Shown here piece by piece: positions 1-9,369 of a stretch of 12,090 bases of DNA (its first letter is position 1; every line of letters starts with the position of its first letter). Under the pieces are notes generated by a model, which was given only the letters and a program-made list of their open reading frames with translations, had not been told where the DNA came from and made no database searches. The DNA comes from a virus (lineage: Duplodnaviria; Heunggongvirae; Uroviricota; Caudoviricetes): IMG/VR virus record IMGVR_UViG_2740892233_000019. The stretch is one strand, 5' to 3'. A program made the position numbers and the translations under genes.

Positions 1-1485
1 TTGTTAACTGAACTTGCTGATAGATTTTTTGGTTCACGTTCTGATGACCGTAAAGAGCTTTTAGAACAAGTTAAGCGTGAAAAAGAGTTAAGAAAATCTG
101 CTCAACAACAAGCTCGAAAATCAACACAAAAAAGTTTTTCAGAAGCTTTGAAGAATCAGACACCAGTTCTTGATGCTTCCTTGGAGGCTGTTAAAAGGCT
201 GAAAACTAAGCTTGATAAAACTGATGGTTCGTTAGATTTAAACTATCTTAAAATTATAGACAGTGATCTTACAAACTTAGATGCGTTGCGCAGTGAAATT
301 AAAACGCCTATCAAACCTCCAAAACTTGGAATGTATGAAGAGAAATATAGAGACTACAGAGATAAATTTAATGAGTTCTCTGCGTATATTCTACAAATGA
401 AGTTAGCAATTAATAAACTTGATTCTGAATTAAATAAACTTGAGCCTTCATTGTCAGCGAAAAATCACCTTGAAAAAAATCAAGGTATTATTAATTCTAA
501 ACTAACTAAGTTTAATAACACGATAGAGGAGAAGATACATTCTCTTTTAAAAAAATGGGCCGATGAAATAAAGGTTGATCGAAGTGATTATTATGCTAAA
601 ACTATATCAGTTGTTGATTCAATAGATAATGATTCACAAATTGAAAATGTGTTTAATTTGCTCGATAGTTTATATGTTGAGTCAGTTGATACCCTAACTT
701 TCAAATATCAATCAATAATAAAAGGTCTCGATAGATTATTTGAAGGTATAAACTTAGATTCAGCATTCTCATTATCTGAAGAAGAACGCTCATATTTTGA
801 AGAAAAAGCTAAAAGTTTAAACGCGCTTGCACAGTTAGGTATTAGTGTTGAGATAATATCTCATGAACTTGAAGAAATGGATTCTATGGTAACCAGAGGA
901 CTAAACTCTCTTCCTACTTCTGTAAAAGAACACCCTGGTTTTTCATTGGCGTTAAATGCTCACAGATCGCTTACTCAACAAATACGTTTCTTATCACCTT
1001 TGAAAATATCAGGTTATCAATCCAGGCAGAGAATAACTGGAAAAAATATCATGGATTATGTCCTGAAGTTCTTTGGGGAGCGTTTCGAACGGCAACGAAT
1101 AACTATTGAATTTAGTGAAGAGTTTAAGCAAATCGCAATAACAGATATACCATTAAGGATCTATCCTGTTTTTACTAATATTATCAACAATGCAATGTAT
1201 TGGGTCAGTCTGTCAAATAATAGGCTCATAAAGATTGGTTTTGTGAATTCTTTGGTTATCATAGCAAATTCTGGTCCGGCAATTGATACCGATGATATCC
1301 CGCGACTATTTGAACTATTTTATAGCAAAAGAGCAAATGGACATGGGGTAGGTCTGTATCTATGTCGAGAAAACCTTGCTGTTGCACATCATAAAATATG
1401 GTATTCAGAACCTGATGAAGGCGATAACTATTTAATAAAAGATGGCGCTAATTTTGTGATCCAGTTCAATGGAGTGGAGTTCTAA
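1..1485 (+). CDS. Sensor histidine kinase, 5'-truncated at window edge (coiled-coil-rich N-terminal part, HisKA-like H-box, HATPase_c catalytic domain)
   Basis: Open frame from base 1 with no in-window start. H-box-like ISHELEE (His codon 862-864). N-box NIINNAMYW (about 1177-1203). G1-like NSGPAI, F-box FELFY, G2 box GHGVGL (1339-1356). Stop TAA at 1483-1485. Lys/Glu-rich, heptad-like upstream part. Confidence 0.75.
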   Translation: MLTELADRFFGSRSDDRKELLEQVKREKELRKSAQQQARKSTQKSFSEALKNQTPVLDASLEAVKRLKTKLDKTDGSLDLNYLKIIDSDLTNLDALRSEIKTPIKPPKLGMYEEKYRDYRDKFNEFSAYILQMKLAINKLDSELNKLEPSLSAKNHLEKNQGIINSKLTKFNNTIEEKIHSLLKKWADEIKVDRSDYYAKTISVVDSIDNDSQIENVFNLLDSLYVESVDTLTFKYQSIIKGLDRLFEGINLDSAFSLSEEERSYFEEKAKSLNALAQLGISVEIISHELEEMDSMVTRGLNSLPTSVKEHPGFSLALNAHRSLTQQIRFLSPLKISGYQSRQRITGKNIMDYVLKFFGERFERQRITIEFSEEFKQIAITDIPLRIYPVFTNIINNAMYWVSLSNNRLIKIGFVNSLVIIANSGPAIDTDDIPRLFELFYSKRANGHGVGLYLCRENLAVAHHKIWYSEPDEGDNYLIKDGANFVIQFNGVEF

Positions 1486-1486
1486 T

Positions 1487-3235
1487 ATGACAGTGGCAAA
1501 TTATAATTCTCTTGTCCAGAAAACTTTCTGCGAAAATGCAATTCGTTCCGTTGTCATGATTGATGACGATTTTCTGACGTATTCTGAATCAATCAGGGCG
1601 TTGAATAACGAAGTTGATTTAGACTACAACAAAATTGACTCATCTAAACGAGCCGCTACTCTTGAGAGCTTTTTTCAATCTAAAAATATGATTTGTGATG
1701 TTGACAATGGTTCTGTTAATTTCGATGTGGATCGGATTAGAAAATCAGATCTTATTATTGTAGATTATCATCTTGATAATAATGCACCTGATAAAACACT
1801 TAAACTATTACAAGATTTGAAAGACTCCGATCATTTAAATATGATTGTAATATATACTAGAGAGAATTTAGAAACGGTTTGGATGCAGATATCATCGACT
1901 CTCAAAGGTGCTCTGGATATCAACAGCTTGATCATTGACTACGATAATGAAGATGTCCAAAGTTATTGGGAAGACGTTGTATTACCGAACTTAAATGATA
2001 ATGGTAATAAAGCTCTCACAAGAGATGAAATAATAGCCTATATTAAAGACAGTAAGCCTTGTAGAAGAATTAAAAGATTAATAAATGATGATGCTGTGTT
2101 GGAGGATCAAAAGGATAAAAACTTCATTGCAAAAATGATTGCAGAATATGCTGTGTCTAGAAATGCAATTATTTCTAGCAACACATCTGGCAATGTCATT
2201 CGGGGTGATGAAAGCGGAGTAAAATGGATTCAATGTGGTAATATCTTTGTCTCCCTATTTCATAAGGTTCAAGATGATCATGAAAACGATGGAGATAGGA
2301 TTTGGCAAACTCTCAATGATTCTCTCATTGAATGGAAACCATCTTATTATCAGTTAATAAAATCTGAAATTCAGAATGCAATCGAAGCTGAGGCTTTATC
2401 TTTTGTAAATCATTTGGCTAACGATCATTACGGTCAAGCTGCGTGGTTAAATGAGATATTAAAATCAGACTCGCCTGATATTAGATGTAGAAATATTGAC
2501 TTTGTATTTGGTAATTTATCAGAAGAGCTTTATCAAAGACTTAAAAATAATAATACGCTGGATGAATTTATCAAAAGTGTTTTTGATAGCTATTCAAATG
2601 AATACGCTAACAGCGGAGTTGCTGCATTGCTCCAATATTGCTCTTCAAAAATGGATCTGCCATCAAATAATGATACTTATCACGAAATGTATCATGCTTT
2701 AAATATGAATTTGTCTTCAAAGAATTTTGAAGATGGTCATATTTCTACTGGCACTATTTTCTTTGATACAGAGTCGAACAAATGGTATTTATGTGTATCT
2801 GCGGCATGTGATTTGGTTCCTACTCAGGGTAACGACCCTCACCATGTAAGATTAAGTCCGCACAGGCTCATTAAAGTTCTGGAGCTTTTTAACGCCAGTC
2901 AGAGTAAAGCATTGCCATTTGCTGAACATTCGAAATATATATATGTAATGCATAAAAATCAAAGAAAATATCTCTCTATTTTCGAAGGGGATAAAACGCT
3001 TCCTGTTGTTGATTATATGGTGGTGTTGAATCATGGAACAACAGTTGATGGCGAAGAAAAAAATATTATTTCTGCCGTGTTTTTAAGTAATATGGATGGC
3101 AACGTGCAAAATGTTCCTGTCCGACTCAAACTTAAATCTCAACTGAGAACTGGTTATGCAGAAAGATATCAGGCTATAGCGTCTCAGTATAGCTCAAGGA
3201 TTGGTGTGGATTATGTATCAATGATGCTACCATAA
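1487..3235 (+). CDS. Receiver (REC) domain protein fused to a large uncharacterized C-terminal domain (about 430 aa); candidate effector/output partner of the upstream kinase
   Basis: ATG at 1487 preceded by GGAG (1476-1479) and placed 1 nt after the upstream stop (TAATATGA), supporting coupling; the ORF track's ATG at 1469 has no Shine-Dalgarno. REC hallmarks aligned by eye to CheY: VVMIDDDF acidic pair (DDD codons 1562-1570), LIIVDYHLDNNAPDK candidate phosphoacceptor Asp (1763-1765), MIVIYT conserved Thr. Remainder shows no motif I recognise. Confidence 0.65.
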   Translation: MTVANYNSLVQKTFCENAIRSVVMIDDDFLTYSESIRALNNEVDLDYNKIDSSKRAATLESFFQSKNMICDVDNGSVNFDVDRIRKSDLIIVDYHLDNNAPDKTLKLLQDLKDSDHLNMIVIYTRENLETVWMQISSTLKGALDINSLIIDYDNEDVQSYWEDVVLPNLNDNGNKALTRDEIIAYIKDSKPCRRIKRLINDDAVLEDQKDKNFIAKMIAEYAVSRNAIISSNTSGNVIRGDESGVKWIQCGNIFVSLFHKVQDDHENDGDRIWQTLNDSLIEWKPSYYQLIKSEIQNAIEAEALSFVNHLANDHYGQAAWLNEILKSDSPDIRCRNIDFVFGNLSEELYQRLKNNNTLDEFIKSVFDSYSNEYANSGVAALLQYCSSKMDLPSNNDTYHEMYHALNMNLSSKNFEDGHISTGTIFFDTESNKWYLCVSAACDLVPTQGNDPHHVRLSPHRLIKVLELFNASQSKALPFAEHSKYIYVMHKNQRKYLSIFEGDKTLPVVDYMVVLNHGTTVDGEEKNIISAVFLSNMDGNVQNVPVRLKLKSQLRTGYAERYQAIASQYSSRIGVDYVSMMLP

Positions 3236-3248
3236 TTATTATATTTTA

Positions 3249-3288
3249 GGCGTGGTGATTTTTTTTCGCCATGCCTATTTTATATTTA
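3249..3288 (+). terminator. Candidate intrinsic terminator for the kinase/REC operon
   Basis: Imperfect inverted repeat GGCGTGGTGA / TCGCCATGCC (10 bp with two G-U pairs) around a T-run loop, followed by U-rich tail TATTTTATATTT. Lies 14 nt after the 1487..3235 stop, between convergent genes. Confidence 0.4.
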
Positions 3289-3306
3289 TCATCACAATGA
3301 TGTTGT

Positions 3307-3723
3307 TTATTTTTGTTTAAGTCTTCTAAGCTTCATGCATTCTAATGAGAATAATAATAGAGTTGTGCTGTATATAAAGCCAGAGTTAGTTAATAACTTT
3401 AAATTTAATGCTTCAGGATTTTCACTGAGAAAGTGAAAGGCATAAACTAAGTATACAGCTAAAGTAGCCGTTCCAATTGTTGGTCCAATATCGCCTTGAT
3501 CATGAGGTTCAAGGTTTACATTGAACTTGAAGATTAGCCATTCAAATCCCCAAGTAAAAAAAACAACTAATATCATGGCTGCGAATAATTTCGCGATGTT
3601 ATCTGCTGATGGATTCATCAGAACAGATTGTTTCTGAAAAAATTCACAAAGTGAGAGTCCGAAAAAAATAAAAAAAAGTGGTCTGGAACTAAATTTTTCA
3701 AAAACTTTGAATAGGGTTTCCAT
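3307..3723 (-). CDS. Small integral membrane protein (about 4 predicted TM helices), unknown function
   Basis: 138-aa ORF with hydrophobic stretches LFFIFFGLSLCEFF, FAAMILVVFFTWGFEWLIF, TLAVYLVYAFHF, FIYSTTLLLFSL. GAAGG-like RBS upstream of ATG at 3723. Sits between integrase and the kinase/REC cassette. Confidence 0.5.
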   Translation of the reverse strand: METLFKVFEKFSSRPLFFIFFGLSLCEFFQKQSVLMNPSADNIAKLFAAMILVVFFTWGFEWLIFKFNVNLEPHDQGDIGPTIGTATLAVYLVYAFHFLSENPEALNLKLLTNSGFIYSTTLLLFSLECMKLRRLKQK

Positions 3724-3761
3724 TTTCTTTACCTTCAGGATTATATTAGCTATTCTGATAC

Positions 3762-4991
3762 TTAGGCTACCAGAGCATTTGATCTTTGAGCTTGAACGTA
3801 ATCACTCCACCATTGCATCAAACTCTGTCGCTCTATCAGATATTCTGCACGATTGTATGCTGCGATAATTTCATCTTTTTTCGAGTGGGCAAGCGCTGCC
3901 TCAAGAACTTCAGCTCTGAATTTACCAGACTCCTCTGCCGCTGTTCGTGCAATAGAACGCATACCGTGAGCTACAAGCTCGCCTCCGAACCCCATTCGGA
4001 TGATAGCTGCGTTGGCTGTTTGTTCATGCATATGATTAAGAGGCGCTTTTATGCTGGGGAAAACCCATTCTCTATGCCCACTTATTGATTTCATTAATTC
4101 AAGGATGCGCAAAGCTTCTTTACTCAAAGGAACTTTGTGAAGCTTTTTCATTTTCATGAAATCAGCAGGAATGTTCCAAATGCTGTTGGTTGTATCAATA
4201 TCAGACCACCTTGCGCGAACGGCTTCACCCGGACGAACCCATGTCAACAATTGCCATTCAATTAGCATACGTGTTTCCAACCGGATTGACGCATTCGTCA
4301 AAGATTCCATAAACCTTGGCAATTCGCTTGGGGGAAGGGCAGGCATATTTTGCTTTTTTGGTTTACTGAATCTTTGACCAAGGTTGTCAGCCGGGTTGAA
4401 CTCAATAAGTTCTTCAGTAGCTGCCCACCGGAAGATTTCATTCAGACGTGAAATGATACGGCGTAGAGTTTCCAATACGCCTCGTTGCTCAATAGGATCA
4501 AGGTGTTGTTTTAAGAGCTTAGGTCGGATCTCATTGATAGGGACATTACCCAGACCGGGAAAGACATTTCTCTCTAAGCTGCGCCAGATGTCTGCTGCAT
4601 GGTCTTGTGAGATACCTGATGTCTTTACCTTCTCATCTAACCATTTCCGCGCTACGGCTTGGAGAGTGTGCTCAGTAGCACTCTTTAATGCCTTCGCCTT
4701 ATCGTTGTTATGGATTTGGGGATCAACACCATTTGCCAGAAAGGAGAGATATTCATCACGTAAGGCTCTGGCTCTTGCAAGGGTAAGGTGAGGATATGTC
4801 CCAAGGCTCATTTTGGTTCTTTTCTTGCTCACGGGTACTGCATACCTGAAATACCAATTTTTCTTGCCTCCTTTCGCCAAAGGAGCGATTCGTAGAATCA
4901 GACCATCACCGTCAAACAAGTTGATTTCTTTATCGGCTGGCTTGGTGCTTTTGATTTCAGTGTCAGTGAGCTTCTTAGCGATTTTTGCCAT
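3762..4991 (-). CDS. int: Tyrosine recombinase / integrase, P4-type (IntA-like, the family associated with ssrA-integrated islands)
   Basis: N-terminus MAKIAKKLTDTEIKSTKP...DGDGLILRIAP...WYFRY matches the P4/IntA-type N-terminal signature as I recall it. Catalytic boxes: RPGEAVRARW (Arg), HGMRSIARTA (His-x-x-Arg), AYNRAEY (Tyr). Start at 4991 preferred over 5033 (better RBS GAGGG, matches family N-terminus). Confidence 0.9.
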   Translation of the reverse strand: MAKIAKKLTDTEIKSTKPADKEINLFDGDGLILRIAPLAKGGKKNWYFRYAVPVSKKRTKMSLGTYPHLTLARARALRDEYLSFLANGVDPQIHNNDKAKALKSATEHTLQAVARKWLDEKVKTSGISQDHAADIWRSLERNVFPGLGNVPINEIRPKLLKQHLDPIEQRGVLETLRRIISRLNEIFRWAATEELIEFNPADNLGQRFSKPKKQNMPALPPSELPRFMESLTNASIRLETRMLIEWQLLTWVRPGEAVRARWSDIDTTNSIWNIPADFMKMKKLHKVPLSKEALRILELMKSISGHREWVFPSIKAPLNHMHEQTANAAIIRMGFGGELVAHGMRSIARTAAEESGKFRAEVLEAALAHSKKDEIIAAYNRAEYLIERQSLMQWWSDYVQAQRSNALVA

Positions 4992-5155
4992 TTTGGGACC
5001 CTCGGTTTTTGGACCCTTCTTAGTGGGTCCCATTCAGGGTGCCATAACTCGTAGTTCTCAGCAATTCTCACTGGACGACAATAGACGTAAAAAAGCCCGC
5101 AGAGCTTGTGCTGTGTGGGCTTAGTAGACTTCATTGAACTTCAAACAACTAAAAA

Positions 5156-5180
5156 GTGGAGCTGGCGGGAGTTGAACCCG
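5156..5180 (-). other. Attachment-site core: 25-nt copy of the tmRNA (ssrA) 3' end (T-arm plus acceptor 3' strand), without the tmRNA body
   Basis: Minus-strand sequence CGGGTTCAACTCCCGCCAGCTCCAC matches the E. coli ssrA 3' terminus as I recall it. Sequence beyond 5180 diverges and no complementary acceptor 5' strand (GGGGCTG / GGAGCTG) is present, so this is neither a full tmRNA nor a tRNA. About 165 bp upstream of the integrase start. Confidence 0.7.
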
Positions 5181-5289
5181 TGCCCGAGCAATGCTTAACC
5201 CATTGAATAACAATGCATTCTCTGTTTAAAAATGCCTCAAGTGCATTTTGAGTGCATTTTCTGGTCCTCTCTTGGTCCATACAACGAGA

Positions 5290-6198
5290 TTAAGTGGCCA
5301 CTTGAAGTTCCGGCCCTGCGTCGCTATCTATTAACGGCTGACCTTGAACCATTTTTTCAACCATATCGTTTGAAGGATATGGAACCCCGAGCTCAACCGT
5401 ATTAGGGTTGGAACGGTGGGTTTCAACAAACGATGTTCCGTTCCATTTTTTTGAAAGGTAGATTATTCCTTCAAAGGCTGCAGGGTCCTGTTTCTGAGAC
5501 TCTAAGATCATGTGGAAGCCACGACGTTCTATCCCGCGTAAGAAGCTGGAGAAGCACTCCCTCAGTAATTCGTCATCCAAATCCTTGAACTTGATACCCT
5601 GCGCAAGAAACTCGAAATAATTAAGAATATATAAAAGGCCATTGATGGCATCCCTGTACTCATCGGGGACCTTCATATTCTTGTATTCTTCTTTGTCTGG
5701 GTTGCAGCGCCACTCTGATAGTTCTTGTGGTACATAACGCATGCCCCGATAGAATTTGGTGCTGTTCCGAAGCTGTTTTTGGTACTCCGGGCTTGTTCGG
5801 GTGTTAATGATCATGTTCAGCGTGTGGGACCTGCGCGTGTTAGCAGCGGACGTTATGCATTGTATCCACCATCCCATTCCAACGAGCATTCCTGTAACCA
5901 TGATCGAAAGCGATGTTTGATAGGCCGGTGTGTACCTTAAAATTGCATATCCAATAAGGATAATCACATAACAAACAGTGCTGAACATAGGAAGAAATTC
6001 TGCAGTGTCTGGATAGCGTTTTTTGATGAAGCAGAAGATAGAAGATATTGCTGCACCAGAACCAGCAATGACGATCAGCCAATCAATGATGGCGATGCTA
6101 AATGGTAGTTTTCCAGGGTAGATATAAGTAAAAAGTGCTCTGACAATCATCATTAGAGCAAAAATTGTAGCGCTGACGTTGACTAATGTTCTCGCCAT
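5290..6198 (-). CDS. Membrane-anchored protein (N-terminal multi-TM region, about 170-aa soluble C-terminal domain), unknown function
   Basis: ORF track gives 5290..6231; start at 6198 (MARTLVNV, AGGA about 10 nt upstream) preferred because 6231 sits inside a GC-rich stem-loop. Hydrophobic helices ATIFALMMIVRALF, IAIIDWLIVIAGSGAAISSIFCFI, VCYVIILIGYAIL, MVTGMLVGMGWWI, then a charged C-terminal half. Confidence 0.5.
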   Translation of the reverse strand: MARTLVNVSATIFALMMIVRALFTYIYPGKLPFSIAIIDWLIVIAGSGAAISSIFCFIKKRYPDTAEFLPMFSTVCYVIILIGYAILRYTPAYQTSLSIMVTGMLVGMGWWIQCITSAANTRRSHTLNMIINTRTSPEYQKQLRNSTKFYRGMRYVPQELSEWRCNPDKEEYKNMKVPDEYRDAINGLLYILNYFEFLAQGIKFKDLDDELLRECFSSFLRGIERRGFHMILESQKQDPAAFEGIIYLSKKWNGTSFVETHRSNPNTVELGVPYPSNDMVEKMVQGQPLIDSDAGPELQVAT

Positions 6199-6210
6199 CT
6201 TATTGATTCC

Positions 6211-6239
6211 TATAACAAAAGACCTCCGCATGGGAGGCC
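6211..6239 (-). promoter_or_regulatory. GC-rich stem-loop followed by T-tract on the minus strand (terminator- or attenuator-like) immediately upstream of the 5290..6198 start
   Basis: Minus-strand GCCTCC-CATGC-GGAGGT hairpin followed by CTTTTGTT. Lies about 440 nt downstream of the lambdoid integrase stop and just upstream of the next ORF. Confidence 0.3.
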
Positions 6240-6680: not shown

Positions 6681-7856
6681 TCAGCTTGACACAACATTTA
6701 TAGACGTTTTACCATCGTATTCAGCCAGGTATTTACCGTAATTGCGGAACAGCATTTCCGGCCCCTTATGCCCCATCTGCCCGGCAAGCCAGAAAAGGTT
6801 TACACCCTGGCTAATGTGTCTGGTGGCGAATGTGTGGCGCGTCTGGTACGGGTTACGGTAGCGCACACCAGCTTTTTTCAGGGTCGGCACCCATGCTTTT
6901 TTACGGATAGCGTCGGCGTTCGTCCAGGGTTCTCCCGTTTTCGGATCGCTGAATATGAACTCACTTTTCATAAAGGTGTATTGCTTCTGCGCCTGCAGGG
7001 CTGCCAGCGCCTCACTGTTCAGCTCCACCTTACGGGTACCGGCTTTTGTCTTGGTGCCTTTAAGTACCCCTACGACACTGGCCGCCTGAACGTGGGCTGT
7101 GTTCGCGATGGTGTCGAGATCAGCCCAGCGCAGCGCGCACAGTTCTGAGCTCCGCAGACCTGTATTGAAAGCAAAGCGGAACAGGTTTTCCCATTCCCTG
7201 TACCTGCAGCTCTGGTAAATGGCAAGGGTCTCCGCTGGCGTGAACGGGTCAACCTCGTAATCGTCGGCGCTCGGGCTACTGTCGATCACGTGGTACCGGC
7301 TGGCGCTGACGAGGGTTACCGGGTTAATGGTCAGCAGGCCATCCGTAACAGCTTCATCAATGGCGCTGCGCAGAAATGACAGGTTATTCCTGATTGTTTT
7401 CAGCTTAGTTTTTCGGCTGGCTATCCAATTTTTTAGTATCGCAGGCGTCAATTCTGTTACATGTAGTTTATGTAGTTCTGATAGTGCTGATAGACATTTT
7501 TCGTAACCGCCAATGGTTGACGGCGACAGATTACGGTTTATGCAAATTTTCAGGTATTCATCAAGATAGGACTTAATATTTTTGGTTTTCTTTACTACAC
7601 CGAATAACTCCAGTTTTTTGGAATTGGGGAAATATTTCGCATATTCAAACGTTCCGCTGGCGATCTGATTTTGTATCTCCCCTAGCAGGCGCTCAGCATA
7701 TTTTATACCACGTGTATTTGCCTCAAGCCGAGATAGGGGCTCCCTGCAAAGAACCCCTTTATATGTGAAAGTGATAACTAGTGTTGAAGCAGTTTTATGC
7801 TTACGAATAGTTACTCCTCTTGGCAGAGATAATAATCCTTGTTCTTTCTTGCCCAT
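6681..7856 (-). CDS. int: Phage integrase (tyrosine recombinase) of the lambdoid prophage
   Basis: C-terminal catalytic boxes: GLRSSELCALRWADLD (Arg), TRHTFATRH (box II, LRHxFAT-like), LFRNYGKYL (Tyr). Start at MGKKEQ (7856) preferred over 7883. The excisionase ORF overlaps its 5' end, as is typical for int-xis pairs. Confidence 0.85.
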   Translation of the reverse strand: MGKKEQGLLSLPRGVTIRKHKTASTLVITFTYKGVLCREPLSRLEANTRGIKYAERLLGEIQNQIASGTFEYAKYFPNSKKLELFGVVKKTKNIKSYLDEYLKICINRNLSPSTIGGYEKCLSALSELHKLHVTELTPAILKNWIASRKTKLKTIRNNLSFLRSAIDEAVTDGLLTINPVTLVSASRYHVIDSSPSADDYEVDPFTPAETLAIYQSCRYREWENLFRFAFNTGLRSSELCALRWADLDTIANTAHVQAASVVGVLKGTKTKAGTRKVELNSEALAALQAQKQYTFMKSEFIFSDPKTGEPWTNADAIRKKAWVPTLKKAGVRYRNPYQTRHTFATRHISQGVNLFWLAGQMGHKGPEMLFRNYGKYLAEYDGKTSINVVSS

Positions 7857-8020
7857 TTTGAAACCTCTATTAAGTCGACCCAACGCTCTTTAACCCCGTC
7901 GACTTTTAATACATGTACCCCTTCTTTCCATATTCCTCTTTGTATCCGTTTGTTAACGGCATCAACCGTTTCTCCCGCGTTGCGGCAGTAGGTTGATATA
8001 GGTACGCAATCCAGCCCCAC
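7811..8020 (-). CDS. xis: Excisionase-like small DNA-binding protein (Xis)
   Basis: 69-aa basic ORF immediately upstream of and overlapping int. GTG start at 8020 with GAGGTGA Shine-Dalgarno 5 nt upstream. Sequence pattern resembles the excisionase-like family by eye; no strong motif check is possible. Confidence 0.55.
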   Translation of the reverse strand: MGLDCVPISTYCRNAGETVDAVNKRIQRGIWKEGVHVLKVDGVKERWVDLIEVSKWARKNKDYYLCQEE

Positions 8021-8178
8021 AGTTCACCTCACACAACATTCAGCCCACGACAGTGACACCACACTTCAAACATTCGTTTCACAATTTCACGACAGTAGAA
8101 ACCGTCAACATCTCGCGTCAGGTCATAGCGATTGCCGAATGTCTTGCGAACCCATAACTCAAAAACCGTATGCATGTA

Positions 8179-8421
8179 TCACCTCCGTTGCATTGCGCGC
8201 AATTTTTTCAGGTGCTTTTCCTGCTCAGTGTCCGCCAGGATTTTGCAATACTGCTGGTGGTCAATATGTTCGAACAGGCAGTTGAACTCACCAATGCATA
8301 CCCGCCCGGAGTGTCCGTCCATACGTCGAAAGAACACAGAGCGGTCCGTACAGCGAGTAATCACCACAGGGTATCCGGCCCTGTCCGTGTATATTTGCCC
8401 GCGTTGAATAAGTGCGAACAT
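8179..8421 (-). CDS. Phage early-region hypothetical protein (80 aa)
   Basis: ORF in the minus-strand operon; GGGGA RBS before ATG at 8421; only 4 nt from the stop of the upstream 27-aa ORF. The opposite-strand ORFs at 8132..8407 and 8170..8454 are judged spurious. Confidence 0.5.
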   Translation of the reverse strand: MFALIQRGQIYTDRAGYPVVITRCTDRSVFFRRMDGHSGRVCIGEFNCLFEHIDHQQYCKILADTEQEKHLKKLRAMQRR

Positions 8422-8425
8422 GAGA

Positions 8426-8509
8426 TTATCCCCAGCGGCAAATCGAAAAAATAATCAGCGCAATCGATATTGCAACACCTACAATTGCAAATGCTTCAGG
8501 CCAACTCAT
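8426..8509 (-). CDS. Small hydrophobic peptide (27 aa, single predicted TM helix), absent from the ORF track
   Basis: Hand translation of the minus strand gives MSWPEAFAIVGVAISIALIIFSICRWG, stop TAA. Its ATG (8509..8507) overlaps the TGA stop of the DUF551 gene as ATGA, indicating translational coupling. Confidence 0.35.
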   Translation of the reverse strand: MSWPEAFAIVGVAISIALIIFSICRWG

Positions 8510-9369
8510 TGACTCACCTCCTGCGGCGGTTCTGGTAGAGGCATCCAGTGGGTTACATCGCATTCAGGGATGCTGATATCATCACCAAGCCACCCTTGAC
8601 CTTCAGACCAGCATTGCACGTAATACCCGTATTCTGTGTTCACTACGCACCACTGTGCGTCGTTCGGCATTAGCTCACTACAGCTTATCCAACCATCCGG
8701 AGTTACCGGAACTTGCGGAATGGCTGTCTGCTCTCGAACGTCATTAGGCGCTATAGGTTCTGCTGCCAACTGACTGGCATATTTGTTAATGGTAACGATA
8801 AGCTCTTGCTCAGCCTCATCCAGATAATCACCGATACCTCGCCTGTCACCGTCAAAATCATCGAAATCGGCACGAATCTTGGCAACCTTCTGGATTGCGG
8901 ACAACACCTCACTAGGAATTACCGGATAGTTGGTTGACGTTTCCGCGATTTCCCGAAAATTATTGGTTGACGAATTCTTATTTTCCCGAAAGTTTCTGGC
9001 CTGAAGCATGGCGGCGCGGCAGGCATTCCAGCCAGTAGCGTAATATTTCGCATCCTGCCAGCTCGTTTGTACATTTGAGTACGCTTTTTCCTCTGTCATG
9101 GCCTCTGGTATTGATGCCGGTGCAATTCGTGGCAGGCCGATATATAGTGGTACATCTCCCGGCTCCATCGAATTGACGGGCCAAATATACGCATCACTAC
9201 CATGGTTAATGAGCGCAATCCCCGAAGTATCGATGATGCCAAATGGCTCCGCTGTCAATGCAGTCAATGCAATTTCATAAGCCCGACGCTCAATATTGTC
9301 TCGCACGTCCAGGCTGCTTATGCGCTCTTTGATTTCTTTAATCAGTTTCTTATCGGTGAAAGTGGTCAT
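8506..9369 (-). CDS. Phage protein with C-terminal DUF551-like domain (Ea22-like early-left region protein)
   Basis: 287-aa ORF ending in the Cys/Trp-rich motif CSELMPNDAQWCVV...HWMPLPEPP, which I recognise as the DUF551 signature of lambdoid prophage early proteins. One nt separates it from the upstream gene. Confidence 0.65.
   Translation of the reverse strand: MTTFTDKKLIKEIKERISSLDVRDNIERRAYEIALTALTAEPFGIIDTSGIALINHGSDAYIWPVNSMEPGDVPLYIGLPRIAPASIPEAMTEEKAYSNVQTSWQDAKYYATGWNACRAAMLQARNFRENKNSSTNNFREIAETSTNYPVIPSEVLSAIQKVAKIRADFDDFDGDRRGIGDYLDEAEQELIVTINKYASQLAAEPIAPNDVREQTAIPQVPVTPDGWISCSELMPNDAQWCVVNTEYGYYVQCWSEGQGWLGDDISIPECDVTHWMPLPEPPQEVSQ

Follow-up and report, generated by a model that had tools for sequence, protein, structure and literature searches.

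A conserved 27-codon micro-gene, likely encoding a single membrane helix, in the integrase-proximal accessory region of enterobacterial prophages

The virus record IMGVR_UViG_2740892233_000019 (Caudoviricetes) holds an 84-nucleotide (nt) slot in a densely packed operon, and the question raised by this locus is whether so short a stretch is a gene and, if so, what its product would do. The window analysed here is the whole 12,090-nt stretch, and the element of interest within it is a micro-open reading frame (micro-ORF) of 27 codons. A first-pass annotation had described it as an unannotated, hydrophobic, single-transmembrane-like peptide whose ATG overlaps the stop of an upstream DUF551 gene and whose stop is followed 4 nt later by the next gene. 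The ORF, the ATGA overlap and the 4-nt gap were all confirmed, with the clarification that the micro-ORF runs on the minus strand (8509→8426, start at 8509, stop codon at 8428-8426). The features on which the argument depends are as follows.

8426..8509, minus strand: micro-gene of 84 nt (27 codons plus TAA), encoding MSWPEAFAIVGVAISIALIIFSICRWG; identified by translation, conservation, periodicity and the ratio of nonsynonymous to synonymous polymorphism (pN/pS)
8506..8509, minus strand: ATGA start/stop overlap, a putative translational coupling site; read from the sequence and conserved in alleles
8514..8522, minus strand: Shine–Dalgarno (SD) element AGGAGGTGA, 9 nt, 4 nt upstream of the ATG (-13..-5)

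The minus strand reads ...CAGGAGGTGAGTCAATGAGTTGG... at this point, such that the micro-ORF ATG (8509-8507) overlaps the TGA (8508-8506) of the 287-amino-acid (aa) DUF551 ORF. The GGAGG core of the SD lies at -12..-8, 7 nt upstream of the ATG, and falls within the codons for the QEV tail of the DUF551 protein. AGGAGGTGA is fully complementary to the 3′ end of 16S rRNA, a perfect 9-nt SD. The 1.8-kb stretch around the locus is overlapped by 36 ORFs of 20 aa or more, and the occurrence of one 84-nt ORF is within chance expectation; it is conservation, not the mere presence of an ORF, that goes beyond it.

Frame conservation and coding signature

IMG/VR was scanned with a pattern defined at the amino-acid level (WPEAF, 42-60 nt, R-W-x-stop), by which frameshifted copies would also be caught. 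True homologues accounted for 119 of the 120 matches, with a gap of exactly 51 nt in 118 and an in-frame 6-nt deletion in one. The 58 unique nucleotide versions contained no in-frame stop and no core frameshift. Column entropy, computed over the 17 core codons left free by the search pattern, was 0.50, 0.30 and 0.81 at codon positions 1, 2 and 3, respectively (column permutation p=2.2e-4), and the unique alleles displayed a pN/pS of 0.47 with a pS of 0.34. Synonymous codons varied at conserved residues, G11 being written as GGA, GGG, GGC or GGT and A13 as GCA, GCG or GCT. These comparisons show that frame and length are retained among diverged versions of the micro-ORF, which evolves under constraint at the amino-acid level. 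The first-pass annotation had proposed frame conservation in related prophages as its check, and this was passed, with ATGA invariant and the core intact; the stops and frameshifts that it had named as grounds for rejection were absent from the unique alleles, although a few disrupted copies exist elsewhere (a nonsense change in phage POCJ13 and 1-nt deletions). Its central proposal of an overlooked single-transmembrane-like peptide gene is supported by the retention of frame and length in 58/58 unique alleles and by the coding-type substitution pattern. We regard it as very probable that the micro-ORF is coding and translated, and that temperate enterobacterial phages carry here a true protein-coding micro-gene is almost certain.

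Published ribosome profiling (RIBOseq) touches the copy in prophage Sp6 of E. coli Sakai (NC_002695.2, 1550843-1550926), located between ECs_1518 (DUF551) and ECs_5710, which encodes a transmembrane (TM) protein. In the study by Hücker et al. 2017 (PMC5597208), XECs145 corresponds to ECs_5710 extended to a rare ATA start. It is listed there with 99 % coverage and values of 79.1 and 346.1, apparently for the lysogeny broth (LB) condition; these are probably transcriptome and translatome reads per kilobase per million mapped reads (RPKM). Aligned protein ends gave an offset of 141 nt, which puts the XECs145 start inside the micro-ORF and makes the two overlap over the last 22 coding nt and the stop of the latter. 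Footprints over this overlap fit ribosomes finishing the micro-ORF, which is not proof of it.

ECs_5710 itself (34 aa, MSDDISLAMEGALAVIAVVGVYCLVVFLMDRLGN) occupies 1550962-1551066 of the Sakai locus (L250), 35 nt past the micro-ORF in Sp6-type contexts, and was also seen in L010 and L021. A 74-aa protein (P0008) is a natural read-through fusion of the micro-ORF peptide with an ECs_5710-like peptide. Paralogy between the two was considered and rejected, there being no detectable sequence similarity between the peptides.

Coupling site, mosaic flanks and distribution

Fifteen diverse alleles aligned without gaps around the start, with ATGA and the G at -12 invariant and the GA at -11/-10 at least 90 % conserved, and all context classes carried a GGAGG or GGAGGA SD. 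The proteins ending at this site were of the DUF551 (...PEPPQEVNQ), phrog_660 (...NGLISVEDVLR) and phrog_1621 (...NIEQEVNR) types, together with a fourth C-terminus (...HEEGDK) that had no assignable PHROG family and uses GTGA. Whichever of these four or more unrelated genes lies upstream, the 4-nt ATGA/GTGA overlap is kept; the VT1-Sakai type preserves it by an extra Met codon (aATGATGA). A start codon overlapping the upstream stop, conserved across homologues, places the micro-ORF among genes predicted to be translationally coupled. The earlier suggestion of coupling to DUF551 therefore stands with respect to the start/stop overlap but not with respect to the partner, as four or more unrelated families take the upstream position.

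No other in-frame upstream start was present in 50/72 upstream contexts, and the product is accordingly the 27-aa form (28 aa in the ATGATGA type); a 45-aa N-extended form was ruled out as the product on the same grounds. Downstream flanks were also mutually unrelated, comprising DUF4222, the 34-aa TM gene 35 nt away, a hok/mok locus or terminator-like sequence. As both flanks vary in this way, the mobile unit is the SD plus ORF. Read together, the alignments show a conserved, mobile coding module that is apparently coupled to whichever gene precedes it.

In 933W/Min27-type phages (L003, L013, L019 and L024), the micro-ORF stop is directly followed by the hok/mok (mokW) type I toxin locus. That locus has an apparent promoter-like sequence of its own (TTGCGG-17-TAGAAT, read by eye), and the two units look adjacent but independent.

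The peptide was found by tblastn in approximately 100 phage records at 55-81 % identity, including Shiga toxin (Stx) phage 933W, VT1- and VT2-Sakai, Min27, BP-4795 and ArgO145. Plasmids of E. coli, Salmonella, E. fergusonii and Klebsiella also contributed 181 records with homologues; of these, 174 are non-mobilizable, and many measure approximately 90-110 kb. Their size and a match to Salmonella phage SJ46 suggest that the carriers may be P1-like phage-plasmids. Of 5426 complete E. coli genomes, 1746 were hit by a 103-nt SD-plus-ORF query, at 4377 places in all; the median was 2 and the maximum 9 per genome. The taxonomic range given here rests on phage, plasmid and E. coli collections. In K-12, the one prophage checked was CPS-53; it has yfdP-Q-R-S in common with this prophage but had no copy, and K-12 ribosome-profiling data are uninformative for this reason. 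Two short contigs labelled with other taxa, a 431-nt Xanthomonas pisi contig (L234) and a 1780-nt contig from a Segatella copri metagenome-assembled genome (L147), carried typical E. coli Stx-phage sequence with the micro-ORF; their labels most likely reflect contamination or mis-binning.

Predicted membrane helix and rival explanations

The predicted peptide comprises a short acidic N-tail (WPE), a hydrophobic helix of approximately 19 residues (A6-C24; Kyte-Doolittle mean 2.76) and a basic/aromatic C-tail (RWG). The 19-residue core between W3/E5 and R25/W26 is of the kind expected of a single-pass, bilayer-spanning helix with flanking residues, and we consider it likely that the peptide is a membrane helix. 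Conservation at positions free of the search pattern was 0.97 for G11, 0.86 for A13, 0.94 for A15, 0.91 for A17, 0.97 for Y21, 0.86 for S22, 0.91 for I23 and 0.94 for C24. On a helical wheel, these positions resolve into two conserved faces, G11/A15/L18/S22 and A13/A17/Y21/C24, and one variable stripe (positions 8, 9, 12, 16, 19 and 20), the pattern that would be expected of a helix packing against protein over much of its surface. Membrane protein topology generally follows the positive-inside rule, and given the acidic N-tail (E5) and basic C-tail (R25), the predicted orientation is N-out, C-in.

A mechanism can be proposed from these features. Ribosomes ending the upstream ‘ea’-region gene, here DUF551, would re-initiate at the overlap or initiate de novo on the strong SD, such that the peptide would be made whenever that operon segment is translated. 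The product would insert in the inner membrane as a single helix with its N-terminus (WPE) periplasmic, its C-terminus (RWG) cytoplasmic, and Trp3 and Trp26 at the two membrane interfaces. Its most likely mode of action, as for other bacterial and phage microproteins of such length, would be helix-helix packing on a larger inner-membrane protein or self-association, with faces G11-A15-L18-S22 and A13-A17-Y21-C24 contacting protein and the variable stripe facing lipid. The outcome would be an accessory function typical of exo-xis/moron regions, for example host modulation or exclusion. Modulation of a host membrane protein had already been suggested in the first-pass annotation, and the peptide may act in this way. 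The explanation that we favour on balance is therefore a translationally coupled, single-pass inner-membrane microprotein with an accessory role exerted via a partner membrane protein. That it works via a protein partner and is not a toxin that damages the membrane is, taken by itself, a tentative proposal held at slightly less than even confidence and drawn from comparison with other microproteins. More doubtful still is the extended idea of a widespread phage microprotein family that is expressed by resident prophages and hits a specific host inner-membrane protein, or that serves as a portable anchor for the EaA/DUF551-type protein. If the former were true, the family would represent a new superinfection-exclusion or host-physiology factor; if the latter, the anchor and the mosaic EaA/DUF551-type protein from the adjacent upstream gene would be produced at a constant ratio.

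Several observations weigh against a translated and functional membrane microprotein. The wobble-matched antisense frame has a pN/pS of 0.41, so that dN/dS alone cannot assign the strand, and the sense value of 0.47 denotes moderate constraint only. As the search pattern forced WPEAF and R-W, the conservation of these motifs rests on the few pattern-free tblastn loci that were read. Disrupted copies occur: in Shigella phage POCJ13 (L006), codon 3 reads TAG in place of TGG; L065, L098 and L147 have a 1-nt deletion in codon 2 (ATGACCTGG to ATGACTGG); and in one E. coli genome (P0009) the window allele is frameshifted within its TTTTTT run. Some of these alleles may be sequencing errors; that several copies are broken indicates that the gene is dispensable, and accessory rather than essential. 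The 3′-end RIBOseq coverage in Sakai could instead derive from the signal of the adjacent gene or from reads that map to several places, and that survey considered only ORFs of at least 30 aa (PMC5597208). The peptide's motifs were absent from the supplements of Hücker 2017 and of the Enterobacteriaceae microproteome, in so far as those files could be viewed. Finally, the mode of action is argued by analogy with other microproteins.

The main rival to a partner-binding microprotein, and an unlikely one, is a membrane-damaging small toxin that depolarizes or perforates the bilayer in the manner of TisB, DinQ, Ibs, Hok-type peptides or a mini-holin, and that would serve host shut-off, abortive infection or post-segregational killing without binding a specific protein. 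In size and composition (27 aa, one hydrophobic helix, core hydropathy 2.76), the peptide falls among type I toxins; it lies directly upstream of the hok/mok locus in 933W/Min27-type phages, and its home is in the accessory regions of prophages and plasmids. Its gene architecture, however, is the opposite of that of a type I toxin, with a perfect SD and an ATGA overlap in a packed operon. No promoter-like sites were found at or facing the ORF on either strand and Rfam gave no match, in consensus scans only; these scans likewise revealed no antisense-RNA antitoxin, though a non-canonical small RNA could have escaped them. Stable or conserved RNA structure was absent on both strands. Furthermore, up to nine copies per genome are tolerated, the Sakai Sp6 segment is apparently translated in healthy growing lysogens, and the helix displays two conserved faces rich in small residues without a charged or polar ladder.

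Less probable again is that the ORF is a coupling device or spacer, translated only to pass ribosomes on or to prevent Rho-dependent polarity, with a functionless peptide. The start/stop overlap is indeed the most conserved feature of the locus, and here and in the VT1-Sakai type DUF4222 starts 4-5 nt past the stop with GGGGA in the last codons of the ORF. Against this, the downstream neighbour is not constant (DUF4222, 34-aa TM gene, hok locus or terminator-like sequence), and a spacer would not be expected to keep exactly 27 codons or hydrophobic-to-hydrophobic replacements, nor invariant residues G11, A15, Y21 and C24 that are written with varying synonymous codons.

A further explanation, that the conserved object is an antisense protein gene, a small RNA or a recombination linker of which the sense ORF is a by-product, appears very improbable. 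In its favour, the 5′ end (TGGCCTGAAGCATT) is highly conserved in nucleotides and the module marks mosaic boundaries; the low pN/pS of the wobble-matched antisense frame is accompanied by a core stop in just 1/58 alleles, and the Min27 record (EU311208.1, L003) annotates a 190-aa ORF82 (878-1450) opposite the micro-ORF and a phrog_1621-type gene. Low antisense dN/dS is, however, the expected mirror effect of shared wobble positions. Antisense ORFs spanning the locus were present in only 8-18/68 contexts per frame and ranged from 30 to 190 aa, whereas every one of these contexts holds an intact sense ORF of unchanging length. The ORF82 frame is interrupted in 58/68 contexts, and to judge from this comparison ORF82 is probably a mis-annotation. 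The only spanning plus-strand ORF in the window is 30 aa, in a frame with stops in 11/58 alleles and a pN/pS of 0.79. With regard to RNA, there was no Rfam match, fold z-scores were +0.41 (sense) and +2.51 (antisense, worse than shuffles), and the consensus structure reached -1.5 kcal/mol with 0 compensatory pairs. Lastly, a chance ORF in an intergenic spacer, conserved through recent prophage kinship, is effectively refuted: short ORFs are plentiful around the locus and many E. coli copies are near-identical, but alleles at approximately 55-65 % amino-acid identity and a pS of approximately 0.34 keep length, frame, start and stop in 58/58 cases, conservation spans unrelated flanks and replicon types, and the 3-nt periodicity is significant.

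Two assignments to known families were also rejected. Membership of Hok/Gef was excluded as there was no Pfam or Rfam match over the ORF and the Min27 hok/mok is a separate unit starting past the micro-ORF stop. Lipoproteins carry a lipobox, [LVI][ASTVI][GAS]C, after a basic n-region, and secreted pro-peptides a signal-peptidase I site followed by a mature part. A lipoprotein or secreted pro-peptide does not agree with the acidic MSWPE N-tail, which lacks Lys and Arg, with the Ile preceding Cys24 or with the presence of only three residues after the Cys.

Annotation status, known systems and neighbourhood

The 801 nt around the ORF (8100-8900) were 100 % identical to the prophage of E. coli O26:H11 str. 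11368 and to many other Shiga toxin-producing E. coli strains. In the RefSeq annotation (Prokaryotic Genome Annotation Pipeline, PGAP), the 84-base slot was empty in the O26:H11 prophage and in every other genome or plasmid inspected, and the gaps of 82-84 nt left vacant between closely spaced genes are exactly filled by the micro-ORF. Prodigal has a minimum gene length of 90 nt, 6 nt above the length of the micro-gene, and the absence from annotation fits this requirement of gene callers. An identical 27-aa sequence is nonetheless deposited in GenBank nr as ‘bacteriophage protein’ (AOM44252.1, EIL16809.1 and others); the description of the peptide as unannotated thus holds for RefSeq/PGAP in all genomes inspected and does not hold for GenBank. 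A collection of 5.8 billion proteins, searched with the in-window 45-aa extension of the peptide as query, yielded nine relatives only, all from E. coli and named ‘hypothetical protein’ or similar: among them were five 43-47-aa forms with a spurious N-terminal extension, the 27-aa protein itself (P0001), the 74-aa fusion mentioned above and a 49-aa frameshift variant.

Profile searches of the peptide gave sub-threshold noise only in Pfam (PTR2 and SCIMP, 14-15 bits against a cut-off of 27) and no match in NCBIfam or PADLOC. PHROGs returned weak hits, namely phrog_37784 (E=0.22) for the peptide and phrog_4612 (E=0.019, over positions 33-54 of a 57-aa profile) for the commonest variant; the latter profile may have been built from N-extended miscalls. 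A literature search for the conserved motifs WPEAF and ICRWG found no relevant paper. The family is an uncharacterized one within a well-described class of hydrophobic enterobacterial small ORFs (smORFs) under selection.

Single-pass regulatory small proteins of comparable dimensions in the inner membrane of E. coli and Salmonella include AcrZ (49 aa), MgtS (31 aa), MgrB (47 aa), PmrR (29 aa), KdpF (29 aa), CydX (37 aa) and YohP (27 aa). The micro-peptide resembles them in its size, single hydrophobic helix and short tails, and such proteins are often missed by annotation. By analogy, it is also presumed to pack on a larger membrane protein, its small-residue faces being conserved. In contrast to them, it has no sequence relationship to the group (no Pfam or NCBIfam match at thresholds), and its gene is borne by phages and plasmids, mobile, coupled to the preceding gene and present in up to nine copies per genome. 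Type I toxin peptides are of similar length (TisB 29 aa, DinQ 27 aa, IbsC 19 aa, ShoB 26 aa and Hok ~50 aa). They too are short, hydrophobic and helical and belong to mobile elements and prophages, and the micro-ORF sits beside hok/mok in 933W-type phages; unlike them, the micro-gene lacks an antisense RNA signature, a dedicated promoter and a translation-blocking mRNA fold, and has instead a perfect SD and operon coupling. With ECs_5710/XECs145 it shares an acidic N-tail, a small-residue-rich helix with Y and C, an R-x-G tail and the same accessory region, whereas ECs_5710 has its own SD and spacer, a RefSeq annotation in Sakai and published RIBOseq support (PMC5597208), and is absent from the window.

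According to the Entero67K survey (PMC11188072), intergenic Enterobacteriaceae smORFs of 15-70 codons under purifying selection are mostly hydrophobic or TM, and approximately 13 % start no more than 10 nt from an upstream stop, roughly a third of those overlapping it. The micro-ORF falls within this class, but the peptide was not found in those supplements that could be viewed, and the survey makes no statement specific to its family. The lambdoid exo-xis/‘ea’ genes (ea22, ea8.5 and orf60a/61/63/73) are non-essential early genes that tune lysis-lysogeny and host physiology (PMC10834534). The micro-gene shares their neighbourhood and mosaic behaviour, and its upstream partner has Ead/Ea22-, EaA- and DUF551-type modules. 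In contrast, no membrane protein is named in the main text of PMC10834534, and the micro-gene does not belong to the cassette described there; it is also carried by plasmids and, in 933W-type phages, found at the hok-proximal end.

Should the peptide be produced, an uncatalogued membrane protein would be carried by thousands of sequenced prophages and plasmids of E. coli, Shigella and Salmonella, the medically important Stx phages among them, and the locus would be a concrete example of the blind spot left by gene callers' length cut-offs. Genes of the ‘ea’ region have been reported to bias lysogeny versus induction, and hence Shiga-toxin release. The family is experimentally tractable, being tiny and deletable with clear conserved faces for mutagenesis. 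RefSeq and several phage records also mishandle the locus: the slot is left blank, the upstream gene is broken into pieces and, in Min27, an antisense ORF that is apparently spurious is annotated.

The remaining genes of the operon in the window are as follows.

8506..9369, minus strand: upstream gene, 287-aa mosaic EaA/YfdT-like protein with a C-terminal DUF551 (Pfam DUF551 E=1.5e-12; PHROGs)
8179..8421, minus strand: DUF4222 gene, 80 aa, with its ATG at 8421 after the TAA and the 4-nt spacer TCTC
8029..8175, minus strand: 48-aa ORF with a full-length phrog_3871 match (E=2e-35) and no Pfam family
7811..8020, minus strand: excisionase (phrog_2917)
6681..7883, minus strand: integrase (operon context)

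Neighbours down to the excisionase and integrase are separated by no more than 8 nt or overlap, and an 84-nt non-coding gap would stand out among them. Judged by this gene order, the micro-gene is placed at the tightly packed distal end of an int-proximal ‘ea’/exo-xis-type accessory region. The first-pass annotation had given the next gene its own ribosome-binding site. An SD-like element does exist for the DUF4222 gene, but it is a weak GGGGA (8433-8429) formed by the final Trp-Gly codons of the micro-ORF, and as it lies within these last codons, termination-reinitiation from the micro-ORF into the DUF4222 gene is possible.

The upstream reading frame (8506..9369) is intact in the window and starts 1 nt past the stop codon of the preceding gene, whereas PGAP/RefSeq divides it into a 54-aa coding sequence and two ‘pseudogene’ pieces. 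The 48-aa ORF, flanked by the DUF4222 and excisionase genes, is a further small conserved gene of the same operon. The left part of the window encodes a HEF_HK histidine kinase (1..1485, plus strand), a Response_reg_2 protein (1469..3235, plus strand), a second tyrosine integrase (3762..5033, minus strand) and a DUF4760 protein (5290..6231, minus strand), and this region (1..6231) looks like a separate integrated element adjoining the prophage integrase.

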